Positions 7,942-17,360 of a stretch of DNA of 64,000 nt are shown piece after piece; the first letter of the stretch is position 1; each line of letters opens with the position of its first letter. The position numbers and the translations under genes are program-made. The notes beneath the pieces were generated by a model that was not told the DNA's origin, searched no databases, and saw nothing but the letters and a program-made list of their open reading frames with translations. Origin of the DNA: Limisphaerales bacterium. GTDB lineage: Bacteria; Patescibacteriota; JACMRA01. The stretch covers positions 2,501 to 66,500 of the forward strand of contig JBIKIW010000001.1 in the NCBI GenBank assembly GCA_044361365.1. Direction: 5' to 3'.

Positions 7942-9318
7942 CTAATCAGCAATTCTTAACTCTTTAGGGTAAAAGGTGTTAATCCTTTTTTCGTTTACTT
8001 TTGCCCAAGATAAAGGTATATTTTGGTAAGTTAAAATAATCCAGTCACTCTTTGTGTGAACTTCTTGAATCATGAGACCATCGATTTCTAAGGTTTTACC
8101 TTGCATCACCTCAAGACTTTTTTGTTCACTAATTTCTAGGGTAGGGATGTTTTTATTTTGCTGACAGCATAACAAAGTTTGGTGATGAGGAACAAACTCT
8201 TTATGTCCAAAAGTACCCACTTTAAAGCTATATTTGTGAACTCTAAAGTCTAGTTCAAGAAATTTTAAAATATCTTTATGGTGCATTTTATTGATAGCCA
8301 AAACCTGATTATCCTTTTTATATAAGAAAAAGTTGTTTGTATTTTGAATAAACTTTGCCACTACTTCTAAGTCTTGTTTGTTTAGTTCTTTAAACACAAA
8401 CTCAGATTTTTTAGGCTTGAATTCATTCGTTAAAACCTTTTCAAGTCTAGCCTTTTTCTTGAAAATAGCAAAAGAAAACCCTTCACCATCAAGCTTGTGT
8501 GGTAACATTTTATAACACCCCTTTTGAAGGCTAAACAGATTCCACTCTTTATTAAATTCTAAATCAATTGCTTCTAATTCTGGGTATTTTTCTAGCAACC
8601 AAGTTGTGATATCTTCGTTTTCTATTTTGTTAAAAGTACAAGTTGAATAAACCAAATAACCACCAACTTCAATTGCTGGTAAAATATTTTCTAAAATTTC
8701 TTTTTGTCTGAGGGCATCCTTTTTAACCATTTCCAAAGACCAGTGATTCCACAAAAAAGCGTCTTTTCTAGCTAAACCTTCGCCACTACAAGGAGCATCG
8801 ACTAAAACACAGTCAAAAAACTCTCCAAGCCTTGAGAAATCCTGACCCTGATTTTGAGTTACTACAACATTAGAATTTCCCCATTTTTCGAGATTGTCGA
8901 TCAGCTTATGAACTCGTTTTGTAACCACTTCGTTGGCTATTAAAAGGCTTTCTGGGGTTATTCTGGCAAGGGCCAAAGTACTTTTTCCACCAGGACTAGC
9001 ACACAAATCTAAAACTTTTTTTGGCTGCAATTGGCTTAAAATTTCACCTAAAATCATGGAAGAAGGTTCTTGAGAATAAACCGCTCCTAAGTGCCAAAGT
9101 GGATCATTTTTGTAAGTTTTTTCAGGTAATACATACTCTGCATCTAGTGACCAAGGTACAGGATTTTTAAGAGTTGGTAAAATTTTATTTGGATTATAAC
9201 GAGTGGCTCTTTTGGAGGTTAATTTTAAGGATTCAATAAAGCTAAAAAACTCTTTTTTATCAGTAAAAATAGGTTCTACGGTGTTTATAAAATCTTGTGG
9301 TATTGGGGCTGTTTGCAT
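7942..9318 (-). CDS. NOL1/NOP2/Sun-family RNA m5C methyltransferase (RsmB/RsmF-like)
   Basis: SAM motif VLDLCASPGGKST, catalytic VDAPCSGEG and YSTCT motifs; 458 aa. Confidence 0.8.
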   Translation of the reverse strand: MQTAPIPQDFINTVEPIFTDKKEFFSFIESLKLTSKRATRYNPNKILPTLKNPVPWSLDAEYVLPEKTYKNDPLWHLGAVYSQEPSSMILGEILSQLQPKKVLDLCASPGGKSTLALARITPESLLIANEVVTKRVHKLIDNLEKWGNSNVVVTQNQGQDFSRLGEFFDCVLVDAPCSGEGLARKDAFLWNHWSLEMVKKDALRQKEILENILPAIEVGGYLVYSTCTFNKIENEDITTWLLEKYPELEAIDLEFNKEWNLFSLQKGCYKMLPHKLDGEGFSFAIFKKKARLEKVLTNEFKPKKSEFVFKELNKQDLEVVAKFIQNTNNFFLYKKDNQVLAINKMHHKDILKFLELDFRVHKYSFKVGTFGHKEFVPHHQTLLCCQQNKNIPTLEISEQKSLEVMQGKTLEIDGLMIQEVHTKSDWIILTYQNIPLSWAKVNEKRINTFYPKELRIAD

Positions 9319-9391
9319 AAATGAAAAATGTATAATAAAATCGTGTAGAAAGTTAAGATTTCAAACAAAATCAAAAAATCAAAGACAAAAA

Positions 9392-11128
9392 ATGTATCGA
9401 CCAAATACTTATAATCAAAACCCTAATTGGCAAGGCGACCCCTACAATCAAAATAATGGATATTACCCACCTCAAAATAATAATGGATACAATCCTTACC
9501 AAAATCATCCTAGTTTTCAACAATATTATCCTCAGAATTTATCTCAGCCTCAGCAGCAAAACAATTCTTTTAGAAACTTTAACCAACAACTACAACCTGC
9601 TTCAGTAATTACCCAAGAAGAGTTAATTGCTAATCATTTAGAGCAAACCAGAAAACAAAGAAAATACAGACAGGTTCCGATCAGAACTAAAGTGGTAGAA
9701 GATACACATCAAGAATTACAGCGAAGGCTTTTGGGCAAAGTGGTTGAAAAGTCAGCTAACTCAACTAACAGTAGTATTGTTCCTGTAAATATTTACGTTC
9801 ATAAAAATCAACCTGTAAGTCCTGTTCAAAGTGAAGCTAGGAAAGAGATTAAAACAAACCCATCTTTTAAAAATTCACAACCTTTTACCTCTCAGCAATC
9901 TGCTATTAATCCAACCTTAAACAACACTGATAATAAAAGTTTTGCTTCCAAGATTGAATCAGATAATGAAATTTTAAAATCTTTTAGTATTAAAAAGAAG
10001 CCCAATTTTTCAATTTATCAAAAAGATTTCGAACCGAACAAGGCTTCAGCCAAAACCTCTAAGGTTTCTCAAACTCATTCTAAATTTCCTAAAAAAATCT
10101 CAAAAAGAAGAACTAAAGTTGCTGCTATAATTTCTATTTTTTTGTTATCAGCTAGTATTTTTGGGATAAGCGGTTTTAGTTATTATCAAAAATTCTTTAA
10201 ACAAACACAACCAACAGTTGCTGGAGCTATGGAGGTAGCCAAGCCAAAAGTTGTTAATTATGATGAATACAAAACTTGGATCGAGTCTAAAAACGAAGGT
10301 AGCTTTTCTGAACCAGATTTAGATTTAGATAAAGATCAGCTTAGCAATTATGAAGAATTTTTAATTAGTTCAAATCCTATTTCAGCCAATACTTGTGATC
10401 CAAAAACAAGTGATAGTAAAAATTTGTTTCAACTTATAAACCCAGCTACTTGTAAGCCAATTGACTTGAAAGATGAAAACCAAGCTAAACTCTTCGGTAC
10501 TCTTTTGAGTGTTTCGGATAGTAGCCAGCGTTTTGTAGAAAGTTTTGTTGAAGATTCTAAAGCTAATTCTACAGTTACAAACAGTTCAGTTTTAGATTTA
10601 TTTGGTGTAAAAGAGTATTCTGAAATAGATAAAATTACCAACGAAAGTTTGGATCAAAAAGCCACTCAGGAAAACCTTAAGAAAGATTACTTAAAATCTA
10701 TTCAAAAAACTAAAGATTATATTGATAAGTACAGATCTTACGAAACATATGATAGAAATTATGATTCTCCAGTGCATCCAGCAGTGTATTTAGAAATGTC
10801 CATAAAGTACGGAACTCCACTTAAATACATGTTGGCCATTGCTCGTACTGAAAGTCGTTTTGGTACTGATAGATACACAAATAGTGGAGCCTTAACTAGA
10901 CCAGGTCAGTTTCAAAATATCTACTCCATGGGTCTTACTGATAGCGGAAGTAACTTTGGATTTATGGCTTGGGAAGAAGGGGTTGAGTCTTTTGGTAAGT
11001 GGTATAAGAAATTTCAAGACAGGGGTGTAGGGGATTGTAATAAATGGAGAATATATAATCCAAATGGTGACTATTGTTCCAAGATAGAAAATTTGGCTGC
11101 CGAGATTGAAGTTTTTTTAAAGTCTTAA
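9392..11128 (+). CDS. Membrane protein with a Q/N/P-rich N-terminal tail and a C-terminal lytic-transglycosylase-like domain
   Basis: The start was moved to the ATG at 9392, because the ORF-track start at 9203 overlaps the divergent methyltransferase gene. TM helix AAIISIFLLSASIFGISGF. C-terminal LAIARTESRFG resembles an SLT catalytic E-S motif. Confidence 0.55.
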   Translation: MYRPNTYNQNPNWQGDPYNQNNGYYPPQNNNGYNPYQNHPSFQQYYPQNLSQPQQQNNSFRNFNQQLQPASVITQEELIANHLEQTRKQRKYRQVPIRTKVVEDTHQELQRRLLGKVVEKSANSTNSSIVPVNIYVHKNQPVSPVQSEARKEIKTNPSFKNSQPFTSQQSAINPTLNNTDNKSFASKIESDNEILKSFSIKKKPNFSIYQKDFEPNKASAKTSKVSQTHSKFPKKISKRRTKVAAIISIFLLSASIFGISGFSYYQKFFKQTQPTVAGAMEVAKPKVVNYDEYKTWIESKNEGSFSEPDLDLDKDQLSNYEEFLISSNPISANTCDPKTSDSKNLFQLINPATCKPIDLKDENQAKLFGTLLSVSDSSQRFVESFVEDSKANSTVTNSSVLDLFGVKEYSEIDKITNESLDQKATQENLKKDYLKSIQKTKDYIDKYRSYETYDRNYDSPVHPAVYLEMSIKYGTPLKYMLAIARTESRFGTDRYTNSGALTRPGQFQNIYSMGLTDSGSNFGFMAWEEGVESFGKWYKKFQDRGVGDCNKWRIYNPNGDYCSKIENLAAEIEVFLKS

Positions 11129-11410: not shown

Positions 11411-11486
11411 TGGTGGGTATGGGTGGATTTGAACCACCGACCGCAGACTTATAAGATCTGTGCTCTAACCCCTGAGCTACATACCC
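11411..11486 (-). tRNA. tRNA-Ile (anticodon UAU), CCA encoded
   Basis: Sense strand: GGGTATG-TA-GCTC-AGGGGTTA-GAGC-A-CAGAT-CTTATAA-GTCTG-CGGTC-GGTGG-TTCAAAT-CCACC-CATACCC-A-CCA. This gives a clean cloverleaf of 76 nt. Confidence 0.75.
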
Positions 11487-11564: not shown

Positions 11565-12197
11565 TTACTCTTTTGTTTCTATATATTCAAACGGGAAAGG
11601 ATCTCCCCAATATCTTTGTCTGCTAAACACCCAATCTCGGAATTTAAAATTAATCTGCTTTTCACCCTTTCCAAGGTCAACCAATTTATTAGTAATTTTT
11701 TGCTTTGCTTCTTTTCCATCTAAACCACTAAACTCACCAGAGTCGAATAAAATTCCATATTTGGTAAAAATATCTCCATTTTTTAACTTTTCCTCACAGT
11801 TTTCTCTTGGCTTTCCGTCTTCACTAATAGTTTCTTTGAGAGGAATGTTGTATTTTAAAGCAAATTCTACGTCTCTTTCGTCGTGAGCATCTGCCATAAC
11901 TACCCCAGTTCCGTAATTAGCTAAAACAAAATCGGCAATCCAAACAGGAATTTTATCTCCTCGTAGTGGGTGTTTAACAAAACTACCTGTGAAGACTCCA
12001 GTTTTTTCTTTGTTAATTTGCCTCTCTCGTTCACTTTTGGCTTTGGCTTTTTGGATGTATTTTTCAACCTCTTGCCTAAATTCTGGTTTGGTTATCTCTA
12101 AAACCATCGGGTGTTCTGGAGCCATTACTAAAAATGTGGCTGCATAAATAGTATCAACTCGGGTAGTGAAAGTGGAAAGTTTGGTAGGTTTTGACAT
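11565..12197 (-). CDS. leuS: Leucyl-tRNA synthetase fragment (CP1 editing domain through the RDW..SRQRYWG strand only)
   Basis: TTRVDTIYAATFLVMAPEHP, IPVWIADFVLANYGTGVVMADAHDERDVEFA and FKFRDWVFSRQRYWGDPFP align to the LeuRS CP1 region. The HIGH, KMSKS and anticodon-binding parts are absent. The ORF has its own ATG and stop. Confidence 0.85.
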   Translation of the reverse strand: MSKPTKLSTFTTRVDTIYAATFLVMAPEHPMVLEITKPEFRQEVEKYIQKAKAKSERERQINKEKTGVFTGSFVKHPLRGDKIPVWIADFVLANYGTGVVMADAHDERDVEFALKYNIPLKETISEDGKPRENCEEKLKNGDIFTKYGILFDSGEFSGLDGKEAKQKITNKLVDLGKGEKQINFKFRDWVFSRQRYWGDPFPFEYIETKE

Positions 12198-12264
12198 ACA
12201 AAAGTCTTATTTATTGTAGAATTTCACAAGTATTTTGGTTAGTCAAACAGAGAAGAGTTATTTT

Positions 12265-14505
12265 TTAACTAAATAAAGTGTCTTGACCGCTAGTTTTTAT
12301 CTTCCACCTATCGTCTTCGGTTCTTTCAGCAATATCTTCCAAAACTCTTAAAATATCTTGGTTTTCAGGTGTGATTCCATTTTTAAGTAGTGGAATAATT
12401 TCCCAACAAATTTCATCAAAAGTAGGCAATTGTTTTTCTCGTTCTCTACGATTTAAAAGACTAATTAAATAGTATTTTATCCTTAATTCTAAAGGGATAT
12501 GAGTTCTAAATTTTTTATTTTCTCTGATAAAGTATTTTTGTGAATTAAAATCGTAGTCAAAATTGGCTGTCAAAATTGGAGTTAAATCGCTATATTCTTT
12601 GCTTAAAATATCCAAAAAACCAAGTTCCAAACCTTGGATAACCAAGGCGTCATTGATTTCTTCCAAAGTTGCTCCATGATTTTTAGCAATAATTCCTTCG
12701 ATAGTCTCCAAAACTATAGCTGCAATATCTGTACCCAAATTTGCTTTTAGGATATTTTTTGGACTGCGGACTTTTTTGAAATTGATAATCAGTTGTCCAG
12801 CGATTACAGTAAAAGGATTTTGTCGTTTTTTAAAGCTAGTTTGCCCATTTGCTTGCTTGACTGCTCCTGCGTACTCAAATCCCATCTTTTCAGCTGTTTC
12901 TACGATAATATGCCAGTAGTGGGGATCTTTGTGAGCAAAAACAAAACTCATCCAGCGATCAAATTTTAGCACCCTGTACATTTCAGATATACTTTTAGCT
13001 ATCAAGTCCGAATACTCATGTTTGGTCTTATTATGGCTACCTCCCTCGATGGCTTCTTTTTCAAAATCCTCTTCAGTTACGGGCAAATCCAGCCAAGCAT
13101 TCCACATTGCTGACAAATCCAAATAAGCAATTTTAGCTCCGTAAGGTGGGTCAGTATAAATATAATCTACAGATTCGTCTTCAACTTTATTCAAATCAGT
13201 AGCATCACCTTTATAGACTTGTAAATCTTGAATAGTTTTTTGGTTAATTTTGTCCTTGATTTCTTGTTTGGCTGAAATTATTTTCTTCACTTTGTTTTCA
13301 AATGAATTTATCAAATTTAATTCAACAGGAGTTTTAGCTACTCTGTATCTATAATAAGCGAAAGCAGCAGCATTTCCAGCATTTTCTCCACGAGAACTAG
13401 AGGCATGATAGGTTAAGTTGTGTTTGGTAACTGTACTTGAAAAAGCTAATAAAAGTGAATTTTGAATACTTTTGTCTTTTACTTTTTTGATTAAATGCTT
13501 CAAAAAGGCTAATTCGGCAGTTTGTAGCGAGCTAAATAATTCAGCTACAGTTTGGACATCGGCAGTTTTATCGAGCTTTATATTTTTTAGGTTTTGCCAT
13601 TCAGTTTTATATTTTTCAAGATATTCTTGAGGTTTTTCTTTAATTTTATTCTCTTCGTTTTCATACTTTTCTTTAATTTTTAAAAATTCTTCATGTAATT
13701 TAGCAATATCTGTAGGCTCACAAAGACTGTTGATTATAAAAACTGGTAAAGGATTGAGGTCGATTCCAATAGTTTTGCGAGCTTGCATTAAAGATTCGAT
13801 ACTAGTAACACCACTTCCTACAAAAGGATCTAGTACCAAATCTCCAGGCTGGGTAAAATGCTTGATATAATGACTAACAATATTCCAAGCTTGTTTGGTA
13901 AAATATCCGTGAACTCCAAAATGCCTAGCAGTTGACTGTTTTTTTACTGGTATTTCTTTTGGTAATGGTCGGTTCAAATAATCAAAGTCTGGTTGTAAAG
14001 CTGGCGACACGGTGGTCGCCTCTACGGAAAGGGAATTGGGTTTGTTGAAATTTTTTGGTGAAAGGAGTTTTTCTAACTTACCCCAATAATAATCAATTTC
14101 TTGAAGATCGAAACGAAGTAGGTTCTGGCTACTTTCTTTTTCCCAAAGGACAAATTCTCTTCCGTTGCACATTGCAAAATATTTAGCACGAATTTCTGGA
14201 TGAATAGCATAACCATAAACCTGTCCATCATCTTCACACTTTTCTTTTGGAGATTTCGCATCAAGAACACAAATTGAAAGCCCATTAGTTTGTAATAGAT
14301 AATCTGGTATTTCAGTTATTTGTCTTTTATTTGATCCAATTTTGTAAAAAGGATTTCTCAAACCTTTGTGTGATAAAATTTTAGCATCTTCTGTTGACCT
14401 AGAATAACCAAGTTTGATTAAAATTGGCATTATCAGGTCTTCCCGTACAGAGTCTTCTTTAAAATCTGGTGAATTTAACAAATCAAAGTTGAAGTTGGAA
14501 AACAT
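12265..14505 (-). CDS. Fusion of an HsdR_N-like PD-(D/E)xK fold with an amino (N6-A/N4-C) DNA methyltransferase
   Basis: N-terminus DSVREDLIMPILIKLGY...IPDYLL...VLDAKSP (nuclease-fold motif). SAM motif DPFVGSGVTS. Catalytic motif YTDPPYGAKI. 746 aa. Confidence 0.8.
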   Translation of the reverse strand: MFSNFNFDLLNSPDFKEDSVREDLIMPILIKLGYSRSTEDAKILSHKGLRNPFYKIGSNKRQITEIPDYLLQTNGLSICVLDAKSPKEKCEDDGQVYGYAIHPEIRAKYFAMCNGREFVLWEKESSQNLLRFDLQEIDYYWGKLEKLLSPKNFNKPNSLSVEATTVSPALQPDFDYLNRPLPKEIPVKKQSTARHFGVHGYFTKQAWNIVSHYIKHFTQPGDLVLDPFVGSGVTSIESLMQARKTIGIDLNPLPVFIINSLCEPTDIAKLHEEFLKIKEKYENEENKIKEKPQEYLEKYKTEWQNLKNIKLDKTADVQTVAELFSSLQTAELAFLKHLIKKVKDKSIQNSLLLAFSSTVTKHNLTYHASSSRGENAGNAAAFAYYRYRVAKTPVELNLINSFENKVKKIISAKQEIKDKINQKTIQDLQVYKGDATDLNKVEDESVDYIYTDPPYGAKIAYLDLSAMWNAWLDLPVTEEDFEKEAIEGGSHNKTKHEYSDLIAKSISEMYRVLKFDRWMSFVFAHKDPHYWHIIVETAEKMGFEYAGAVKQANGQTSFKKRQNPFTVIAGQLIINFKKVRSPKNILKANLGTDIAAIVLETIEGIIAKNHGATLEEINDALVIQGLELGFLDILSKEYSDLTPILTANFDYDFNSQKYFIRENKKFRTHIPLELRIKYYLISLLNRREREKQLPTFDEICWEIIPLLKNGITPENQDILRVLEDIAERTEDDRWKIKTSGQDTLFS

Positions 14506-14546: not shown

Positions 14547-17360
14547 TTACTTCGCCTCATTTTCCAAGATTTCAGCTGGAACTAGATCTGGAGTGACTTT
14601 GAAAATGGTTCGGGAAACTTCTTTATCTACCTCTTGTAAAAGATTGATGAAAATGTTTAAACCTTCTTCTTTAAATTCAGTAAGAGGGTCTTTTTGAGAG
14701 TAACCTCGAAGTCGTACAGCATCTTGTAAATGTTCGATTGTTACCAAATGTTCTGTCCACAAAATATCGATTGCTCGTAGGAAAATAAACCTAACCATCG
14801 CACCTTTTTCTACAGGAGTGTAGTCAGTCCATCTTTTATTCATTTGGAATTTGATTTTATCAAACAAAAAGCTAGCTACTCTTTTGTATTTGTATCTTTC
14901 ATCTTTCATCAAAACTTCCAAAATTTCCGAGTCAAAATCATGTAAAGAAACAACACTTTTTAGATCTTCGCTGGTAGTTTTTAGCTCTTTTTGGTAAATT
15001 TCAGCATTTTTTCTTTTTGGTGGCTGCACTTGACTTACAGCTCGTAAAGTTTCTCTTTGTAAAGATTTTTCAACTTCATCTTGCCATTCAAAACCATCGT
15101 TTAAAAGTACTTTTTTGCGTCTAGCATAGATTACACTTCGTTGGCGATTGATTACATCATCGTATTCGGTAACGTGTTTACGGATATCAAAGTTTTGTCC
15201 TTCAATTTTCTTTTGAGCCTGTTCGATCAACCAAGAAAGCTGTCCATTAGAAATTGGTTCATCATCAGCAATTGGTAAAATACTGTAGTACCCAACTCGG
15301 TCTCCTCCAAAAATTCTGAGGATAAAATCTTGTAAAGAAACATAAAACTGACTTTCTCCTGGATCTCCTTGTCTTCCAGCTCTCCCTCGTAACTGGTTAT
15401 CAATTCTTCGGCTTTCGTGCCTCTCACTTCCAATTACGTGCAAACCCCCTAAGCTTTTAACTTCTTCGTGTTTCTCTCTCCAATCTTCCATTTTTTCATG
15501 ATTTTCTGGTGGCTCGCCTCCAAGCTTGATGTCAATTCCACGACCTGCAATGTTGGTAGCTAAAGTTACAGCTCCTTTTTTACCAGCTTCAGCGATAATT
15601 CGGGCTTCTTGTTCGTGGTTTTTAGCGTTTAATAGTTGGTATTTTACCCCAGCTTCATCAAGATATTTAGCAAGTAGCGAATTTTTCTCGATGGAAGTTG
15701 TGCCAATCAAAATTGGCTGACCCTTAGCATTAATAGCTTTTACGTCTCTAGCAATTGCTTTGAATTTACCGTCTTCAGTTTTGAAAATTTTATCAACAAA
15801 ATCTTTTCTCACAATCGGTTTGTTTGTTGGGATTGTAACTACCAAAAGTTTGTAAATTTTGAACAATTCCTCTGATTCAGTGCTAGCAGTTCCAGTCATT
15901 CCGGCTAGTTTTTTGTATAATCGGAAGTAGTTTTGGAAGGTGATCGAGGCTGTAGTTTTGCTTTCTGGTTGAATATTTAGACCTTCTTTAGCTTCGATAG
16001 CCTGGTGTAAACCTTCGTTGTAACGACGACCAAACATCAATCGACCTGTGTTTTCATCTACAATAATAATTTCTCCATCTTTAGCGACATACTCTTTTTC
16101 TCGTTTAAATAGAGCTTGAGCCTTTAAAGCTTGGTTAAGGTGATGAACAATGGTTACATTTTCTACAGAATCGTATAAATGAGTAATGTTTAACATTCTT
16201 TCAATTTTCTCAACTCCTAATTCGGTTAGGGTTACAGTTCGGCGTTTTTCATCTACATCGTAGTCAAGATCTGGGTTTATTTTTGCAACAATTTTGGCGA
16301 AGTTTTTGTATTCTTCTGAAGAGTCTTTATCTTGAGCTGAGATGATAAGGGGAGTTCTGGCTTCGTCGATTAAAATAGAGTCAACTTCATCTACAATAGC
16401 TACATGGTGACCAGCTTTTTGAGATATTTCGCTAGGTGTGTTTGCCATGTTGTCACGCAAATAATCAAATCCAAATTCGGAATTTACTCCATAAACAATA
16501 TCGACAGGCTTATCTGCTTTTTCATCAAAATAAGCTCGTTTTCGATCGCAAGGAATAAGGTGTTTTACGTCCAAAACCGTGCGTGATTCTTGTTTCTCAC
16601 CATCTTCGTATGTTTCCAAAAGTCCAGCAGCTCGTTTCTTTTCAGAATTTTCATCACTCCCAGCTCCAAGTTTAAAGTAAAAACTAGCCTGGTTTTGAAT
16701 AACTCCAACAGTTAGTCCCAAAAAATTGTAAATTTGACCCATCCAGCTAGCACCAACACGAGCAAGGTAGTCATTTACAGTAACCAAGTGAACTTGATTT
16801 TTTTCAGGTAAAGCGTTTAGATAACCAACCAAGGTTGATACCAAAGTTTTTCCTTCTCCAGTACGCATTTCAGCAACCCGTCCTTCATGAAGCACCATTG
16901 CTCCAATAAGTTGAACAGGAAAGTGTTTTTGACCGATTGTACGGTGAGCCGCTTCTCTAACTACTGCAAAAGCCTCAGGTAAAAGCTCTTTTAGTTTCTT
17001 TTCAATTTCTTTTTCATCTTTAATCCCTTTCATGCGGTTTCGAAATTCTTGGGTCTTCCCTCTTAATTCCTCATCTGACAAAGCTTTAGTTTTTTCATCC
17101 AAATCCAAAACTTGTTGCACTACCGAATCGTACCTACCAATTTCTTTTTTCTCTCCAACTACACTACTAAAAAACTTGGAAATAAGACCTTTGTTTTTAT
17201 CGTTATGAGTGGTGGTTTTGTAGCTTATTGAGGTAGATTCTGGTTTAATTTCAGCAGAAATTTCTACTTTCATTTTTGGTTCTGTTTCGGTGATTTTGTC
17301 AGAAACTGGCTTCTTGGAAACAACTTTTTTGTGCTTTTTAGTCGTAGTAGTTTTATTCAT
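14547..17360 (-). CDS. secA: Preprotein translocase ATPase SecA
   Basis: MRTGEGKTLV Walker A, DEVDSILIDEARTPLIIS, TNIAGRGIDIKLGG, and the C-terminal HWD/IRA regions. It has a Lys/Thr-rich N-terminal extension of about 58 aa. Confidence 0.95.
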   Translation of the reverse strand: MNKTTTTKKHKKVVSKKPVSDKITETEPKMKVEISAEIKPESTSISYKTTTHNDKNKGLISKFFSSVVGEKKEIGRYDSVVQQVLDLDEKTKALSDEELRGKTQEFRNRMKGIKDEKEIEKKLKELLPEAFAVVREAAHRTIGQKHFPVQLIGAMVLHEGRVAEMRTGEGKTLVSTLVGYLNALPEKNQVHLVTVNDYLARVGASWMGQIYNFLGLTVGVIQNQASFYFKLGAGSDENSEKKRAAGLLETYEDGEKQESRTVLDVKHLIPCDRKRAYFDEKADKPVDIVYGVNSEFGFDYLRDNMANTPSEISQKAGHHVAIVDEVDSILIDEARTPLIISAQDKDSSEEYKNFAKIVAKINPDLDYDVDEKRRTVTLTELGVEKIERMLNITHLYDSVENVTIVHHLNQALKAQALFKREKEYVAKDGEIIIVDENTGRLMFGRRYNEGLHQAIEAKEGLNIQPESKTTASITFQNYFRLYKKLAGMTGTASTESEELFKIYKLLVVTIPTNKPIVRKDFVDKIFKTEDGKFKAIARDVKAINAKGQPILIGTTSIEKNSLLAKYLDEAGVKYQLLNAKNHEQEARIIAEAGKKGAVTLATNIAGRGIDIKLGGEPPENHEKMEDWREKHEEVKSLGGLHVIGSERHESRRIDNQLRGRAGRQGDPGESQFYVSLQDFILRIFGGDRVGYYSILPIADDEPISNGQLSWLIEQAQKKIEGQNFDIRKHVTEYDDVINRQRSVIYARRKKVLLNDGFEWQDEVEKSLQRETLRAVSQVQPPKRKNAEIYQKELKTTSEDLKSVVSLHDFDSEILEVLMKDERYKYKRVASFLFDKIKFQMNKRWTDYTPVEKGAMVRFIFLRAIDILWTEHLVTIEHLQDAVRLRGYSQKDPLTEFKEEGLNIFINLLQEVDKEVSRTIFKVTPDLVPAEILENEAK

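Follow-up and report, generated by a model that had tools for sequence, protein, structure and literature searches.

The stretch of DNA that we analysed (hereafter the window, 64,000 nucleotides) is C77:2501-66500 of the metagenome-assembled genome of an ultra-small bacterium of the Patescibacteria; this genome has 1.48 Mb, comprises 77 contigs and is 88 % complete. On its minus strand, between a tRNA gene and a DNA methyltransferase gene, lies a small open reading frame (ORF) that encodes the CP1 editing domain of leucyl-tRNA synthetase (LeuRS). The features of the locus are:

11411-11486, tRNA-Ile(UAU), downstream of the CP1 gene and the sole intact tRNA there
11565..12197, minus strand, gene of the putative CP1 subunit of a leuS split in three pieces, 210 aa, ATG to TAA
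11583..11651, minus strand, stretch of the synthetic (Rossmann) body C-terminal of CP1, N183-Y205 (NFKFRDWVFSRQRYWGDPFPFEY), from PDB alignment and conservation
11871..11915, minus strand, editing active-site block Y95-D109 (YGTGVVMADAHDERD), from alignment with LeuRS of the PDB
12150..12173, minus strand, threonine-rich editing-site motif T9-T16 (TFTTRVDT), equivalent of E. coli T247-T252
12218..12246, minus strand, upstream block TTGACTAACCAAAATACTTGTGAAATTCT, of the form TTGACT-N12-TTGTGAAAT(T/C)CT
12265-14505, minus strand, N6_N4 (N6_N4/D12-type) DNA methyltransferase, 746 aa, with a long N-terminal extension
14547-17360, minus strand, secA, upstream of the methyltransferase

As stated in the original prediction, the ORF is free-standing, with its own start and stop codon; an in-frame TAA lies four codons 5' of its ATG, and it is thus flanked by TAA stops. 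The upstream neighbours are also those described, a methyltransferase followed by secA, with no HIGH half of a synthetase. Of the tRNA genes expected downstream only one, tRNA-Ile(UAU), is an intact gene. Downstream of the 93 % ortholog of the ORF, in another neighbourhood, lies a stretch (L031:3225-3516) that likewise resembles tRNA genes by eye. Further along the window, 9203-11128 on the plus strand is a 641-aa ORF with no Pfam match and a low-complexity N-terminus rich in Q, N and P, which independent assemblies call at 578-615 aa.

We confirmed the product of 11565-12197 as a LeuRS CP1 editing domain of the bacterial type. It matches PF13603 (LeuRS editing domain) with 173.2 bits (E = 5.3e-51, against a curated cut-off of 25 bits) over profile positions 21-184/185, and it aligns to TIGR00396 (leuS_bact, 843 positions) at 239-431, or at 238-435 in the search of the whole genome. 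An AF2 model of the protein, with 17 homologs as input, reached a mean pLDDT of 76.5. Its best Foldseek matches, with 1OBH, 2V0C and 1H3N at the top (TM 0.73, rmsd 2.4 Å, 178 columns), are CP1 structures of LeuRS, first from T. thermophilus and also from A. aeolicus and E. coli. The residues of the editing site had been predicted to be preserved, and indeed they are: TFTTRVDT, which includes the TTRVDT noted before, pairs in the alignment with TTRPDT of the T. thermophilus and E. coli enzymes, and the motifs YGTG..M..HDERD and GTGVVMADAHDERD are both present and invariant or nearly so among homologs. When 18 free-standing CP1 proteins are aligned, T9, F10, T11, T12 and R13 are invariant and D15 and T16 are conserved at 90 % or more. 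The same 18 proteins all share Y95, G96, T97, G98, M101, H105, D106, R108 and D109, and the Y95-D109 block contains the universally conserved Asp that is, by alignment, the equivalent of E. coli D345.

The view that the ORF covers only CP1 needs correction at both ends of the protein. Crystallised CP1 constructs start 15-25 residues earlier than the ORF in the PDB alignment; the first hinge strand is missing from the ORF and forms the last strand of the N-terminal piece of LeuRS, which is encoded elsewhere in the genome (the N piece, see below). At the other end, none of the crystallised isolated CP1 constructs of the PDB goes beyond query residues 180-185, yet full-length LeuRS chains align as far as 207. 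The final 25 residues (NFKFRDWVFSRQRYWGDPFPFEY) are therefore part of the synthetic body. The ORF thus retains ~25 residues of the synthetic core (FRDWVFSRQRYWGDPFP), and within this tail F186-Y205 is more conserved than any other block, 15 of its 20 positions being invariant across 17-18 free-standing homologs. Its motif was found neither in the N piece nor in the C-terminal piece (the C piece). In the AF2 model the core tail has a moderate pLDDT only (60-74), which fits the need for a partner and is no proof of one.

The original prediction called for a search of the genome for the other parts of leuS, and both were located:

C43:13554-14276, N piece, the HIGH half, 241 aa, TIGR00396 model positions 3-238
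C33:322-3237, minus strand, C piece, the KMSKS and anticodon half, 971 aa, leuS part 322-2616, model positions 440-843

The proposal that leuS is multiply split, with the ORF as one of its parts, is borne out by the way in which the three pieces abut in the LeuRS model. They do not overlap, each lies on its own contig, and with TIGR00396 scores of 322, 206 and 210 + 95 bits they jointly span positions 3-843. In the 88 %-complete genome the profile search yielded no ORF that passes the TIGR00396 cut-off for a single polypeptide (at least 548.4 bits in one ORF), hence no intact leuS, and no second CP1; nor did this genome yield a complete leuS with a near-identical CP1, as would be left by a duplication that made the ORF a pseudogene. 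The N piece has an intact HIGH motif, as FHVGHG, and its C-terminus reads ...NWIGKSEGVVVGWELV before the stop. The C piece bears an intact KMSKS motif, the anticodon-binding domain and the C-terminal domain, together with three extra modules. The first of these, at the N-terminus, is a YdeN/RBBP9-like alpha/beta Ser-hydrolase with a VSHSNG motif; a NUDIX module with a complete Nudix box (GHVEKGEDPILAIKREVLEESGL) and a HAD module with an FDFDGV motif sit before the anticodon-binding domain. Judging from these motifs, all three modules look catalytically intact.

Alignment of the junctions with canonical and two-piece relatives places both cuts in beta-hairpin loops at the CP1 hinges (model ~237 and ~437), with zero residues lost. 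At hinge 1 the N piece ends in ...GVVVGWELV and a stop, and the CP1 piece begins MSKPTK-LSTFTTR...; at hinge 2 the CP1 piece ends in ...PFPFEYIETKE and a stop, and the C piece continues with ...FRIKLLEENKLPLVLPE.... All three genes are internal to their contigs (40-77 kb), the GC content of these contigs is 33.4-34.3 % (genome 34.1 %), and the three pieces have their nearest relatives in common. We also considered genetic code 25 as a means of merging the frames, because NCBI names some relatives SR1 or Gracilibacteria, in which TGA is read as Gly. It was rejected: there is no tRNA(UCA), and TGA ends 59 of 683 long frames. The piece boundaries themselves are all TAA or TAG.

Dispersed gene pieces need not yield separate proteins. 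In other bacteria, split inteins unite the products of essential genes whose halves lie apart, as for cyanobacterial DnaE, and the three LeuRS pieces could in principle be rejoined after expression in the same manner or by trans-splicing of intron halves. We regard this as barely credible here. The N piece ends 1-5 residues past the hinge strand and the CP1 piece begins only 5-8 residues before TFTTR, which leaves no room for intein halves; neither junction carries extra sequence, and there is no intein Pfam match in the window or the C piece. Moreover, no intron or ribozyme family was detected near the ORF (Rfam, E <= 0.1), and each piece has its own conserved start and stop codons.

Given the incompleteness of the genome, the three pieces could also be decaying remnants, or an artefact of assembly or binning, with a working intact leuS in the missing 12 % of a bin of 77 contigs; among the short CP1-only 'proteins' that databases list, many are indeed truncated or frameshifted calls. 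The recurrence of the locus makes this highly improbable. The exact CP1 protein is present in 74 blocks of a public collection, and the order secA, methyltransferase, 67 nt, CP1 gene, ..., rsmF recurs in at least eight independent metagenome samples (JGI, ENA, Logan). Freshwater samples, such as JGI 3300035680 and 3300062774, are among those with the contig. Assembly chimerism, which had been suspected at 12198-12264, is thereby refuted. In one independent assembly the methyltransferase between secA and the CP1 gene is split into ORFs of 564 and 157 aa; since it is broken there, this gene may be dispensable or mobile. The 93 % ortholog of the CP1 ORF occurs on 14 further contigs in another neighbourhood, with a Mg-chelatase-like gene upstream and grpE downstream, and the comparison of the two gives a dN/dS of 0.08 at a dS of 0.6. 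The CP1 gene is under strong purifying selection, unlike a decaying remnant.

Conservation of the piece boundaries also speaks against remnants. Free-standing CP1 proteins form 17 clusters in a large protein collection (195-231 aa, identity of 52-93 %); every one of them begins just before TFTTRxDT and ends 2-6 residues past ...PFPxEY. The same collection holds ~19 free N pieces, ending 0-5 residues past ...DWE(V/L)V, and ~14 C pieces without CP1, all with the Ser-hydrolase module first. CP1-only database proteins below 50 % identity, many of which are on ~1 kb contigs or have aberrant C-terminal tails, were left out of these counts and treated as truncated or frameshifted calls. All motifs are intact in the pieces, and CP1 is single-copy in 24 of the 24 genomes that have it (27 genomes of the order were examined). 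Dispersal of the pieces has an independent replicate in SRR27730021, in which the N piece and the CP1 piece are on separate contigs of ~100 kb. Among reference genomes, G012 is the only other one with a free CP1; its N piece was not found in a search of the 86 %-complete bin, probably owing to the incompleteness of that bin.

The pieces are thus complementary, single-copy and motif-complete, their boundaries are conserved in the clade, and selection acts on the CP1 gene. On the strength of the complementarity, the boundaries and the selection, we infer that the pieces assemble non-covalently into an active enzyme, a heterotrimeric LeuRS of which the CP1 ORF would be the obligate middle subunit (probability about 0.8). 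In this scenario leuS was ancestrally a single gene, and cuts in the loops of the two beta-hairpins by which CP1 is tethered to the catalytic body turned it into the three genes now scattered over the genome. The CP1 piece would pair through its N-terminal strand with the strand that ends the N piece, as an intermolecular beta-hairpin, and its invariant C-terminal tail (FRDWVFSRQRYWGDPFP) would insert into the catalytic body and complete it. The assembled trimer could then aminoacylate tRNA-Leu and edit post-transfer as a normal LeuRS does. Cleaved class I synthetases have been reconstituted in the laboratory.

Alternatively, the CP1 ORF might be an autonomous trans-editing factor, which diffuses freely and clears mischarged tRNA-Leu for a CP1-less LeuRS made of the N and C pieces, a role that the original prediction had also put forward. 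Such independence would suit a gene that has its own start and stop, that never adjoins the other leuS pieces and whose neighbourhood varies, and the invariance of the editing-site residues would be expected of it. It might also have its own promoter: the block at 12218..12246 is common to the CP1 gene and the 93 % ortholog (22/29 nt) despite their different upstream genes. We offer this block, tentatively and as a weak candidate from sequence comparison, as a promoter of CP1 that perhaps moved with the gene; a consensus scan detected no sigma-70-type site upstream. Both parts of such a system have precedents, since a CP1-less LeuRS is published (PMC3643597) and isolated A. aeolicus CP1 is reported to deacylate in vitro (Liu et al., 2011, as cited in PMC3532385). 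Stable assembly is therefore not strictly required for editing, at least for some isolated CP1 domains.

Nonetheless, we consider a trans-editing factor unlikely, on account of what the protein has kept and what it lacks. Its most conserved part is the core segment (FRDWVFSRQRYWG.PFP), for which an editing domain on its own has no use and which is absent from both the N and the C piece. Conversely, the ORF is without the first hinge strand that the CP1 crystal constructs have, and this strand was reportedly needed for the activity of isolated E. coli CP1 in the work of Betha and colleagues in 2007. Boundaries kept to within a few residues also fit poorly with a freely diffusing factor, and in the 88 %-complete genome there is neither a complete LeuRS alongside the ORF nor a second CP1. 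An obligate subunit of a heterotrimer, with an invariant core tail to contribute and a hinge strand supplied by its neighbour, accounts for these features better.

Naturally split synthetases are already known. The closest case is the alpha-beta LeuRS of Aquifex aeolicus, which consists of two pieces cut within the leucine-specific domain, according to PMC3643597 and the studies it cites (Xu et al., 2002; Ma, Zhao and Wang, 2006). Both are naturally split bacterial LeuRS; the Aquifex subunits assemble non-covalently into an active enzyme that is competent for editing, whereas here the assembly is deduced. They differ in that CP1 stays on the alpha subunit of Aquifex, while here there are three pieces, the cuts are at the hinges (model ~237 and ~437 in this genome, rather than in the leucine-specific domain), CP1 has its own gene and the C piece includes three additional hydrolase modules. 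Isolated CP1 constructs (E. coli 2AJG, A. aeolicus 3O0A/3PZ5, S. pneumoniae 4K47, M. abscessus 7N11) share the fold and the active-site motifs with the ORF. However, they are laboratory truncations with the first hinge strand and without the core tail, and the natural CP1 protein is the opposite in both respects. The LeuRS of Mycoplasma mobile, which is described in PMC3643597 as having lost CP1 and editing altogether (citing Li et al., 2011), is an example of a LeuRS body that exists with no CP1 attached to it covalently; here, in contrast, CP1 is kept as a separate gene under strong selection.

Class II synthetases have free-standing editing-domain relatives such as AlaX and YbaK. Like AlaX, YbaK/ProXp and archaeal ThrRS-ed (PMC6344894 treats the ProRS case), the product of the CP1 ORF is a homolog of an editing domain that has a small gene of its own. 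The class II trans-editing proteins are autonomous paralogs beside a complete synthetase, though, while the CP1 ORF is the only CP1 of its genome, an ortholog of in-gene CP1 and in part synthetic core. The split aminoacyl-tRNA synthetases of Nanoarchaeum and other DPANN (PMC6349945) offer a further parallel, with essential translation genes in dispersed pieces in ultra-small organisms with reduced genomes, but they belong to another domain of life and are other enzymes. In the full-text literature that we searched we found no description of a three-piece LeuRS, of a naturally separate CP1 gene or of a split synthetase in Patescibacteria, and no natural, separately encoded CP1 of class Ia.

A LeuRS encoded by three conserved genes is a natural experiment on how CP1 is tethered. 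It can inform us on the hinge elements needed for translocation of the tRNA 3' end from the synthetic to the editing site, and it probes the modularity of the class I core. The hinge cuts are also ready natural split sites for protein engineering. For annotation, synthetase pieces of this kind are routinely labelled 'partial' or 'class I tRNA ligase family protein', and split synthetases bear on estimates of genome completeness.

Placing the CP1 in a phylogeny, as the original prediction recommended, groups the ORF with in-gene CP1 domains from its own family. The ORF and the 93 % ortholog fall within a well-supported clade that includes CP1 fused to the N piece, CP1 fused to the C piece and CP1 within one ORF; given this nesting, the ORF is an ortholog of in-gene CP1 and not a foreign paralog. 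The family displays a wide variety of leuS architectures, which differ at precisely the two CP1 hinges. Canonical genes encode 815-843 aa, and one-ORF versions reach 1598 aa, with NUDIX, Ham1, HAD, Ser-hydrolase or DUF559 inserted at either hinge or at both. Two-piece genes are split at hinge 1 in G004 and at hinge 2 in G001 and G018, and the three-piece state occurs in G000 and G012. The in-frame hinge modules vary by genus (NUDIX, Ham1/ITPase, HAD, Ser-hydrolase or DUF559 nuclease), as judged from the relatives L011, L012 and L023-L029 (G001, G015, G018, G005, G007, G003, G014, G023 and G021).

On the best tree, parsimony requires at least five changes at hinge 1 and at least three at hinge 2. 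An AU test did not reject a single clade of free-standing CP1s (p = 0.197), and for this reason we limit our claim to the hinges being hot spots and make none for a repeated independent origin of free-standing CP1.

Food for speculation is whether CP1 is a dissociable, separately regulated proofreading module, and the hinge loops a general socket of the Patescibacteria LeuRS for the editing domain or hydrolases, in cis or in trans. We hold this to be doubtful, but its consequences would be considerable. Through the stoichiometry of CP1 a cell could tune the fidelity of its LeuRS, or let LeuRS bodies with different decorations use the module in common. The socket would take Ser-hydrolase, NUDIX, HAD, Ham1 and the editing domain itself, and CP1 would be the first case in nature of a class Ia editing domain at work as a separate polypeptide.

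The hinge loops of the G018 LeuRS hold up to four NUDIX copies, and the Ser-hydrolase of this genome is a separate ORF of 201 aa between the N-CP1 gene and the C gene. Breaks in leuS also occur away from the hinges: in G025 (C37, C39, C19) and G009 (C78, C90), two other genomes of the order, the gene has a further interruption around model positions 551-604, where the Aquifex enzyme is also divided, in the region of the leucine-specific domain.
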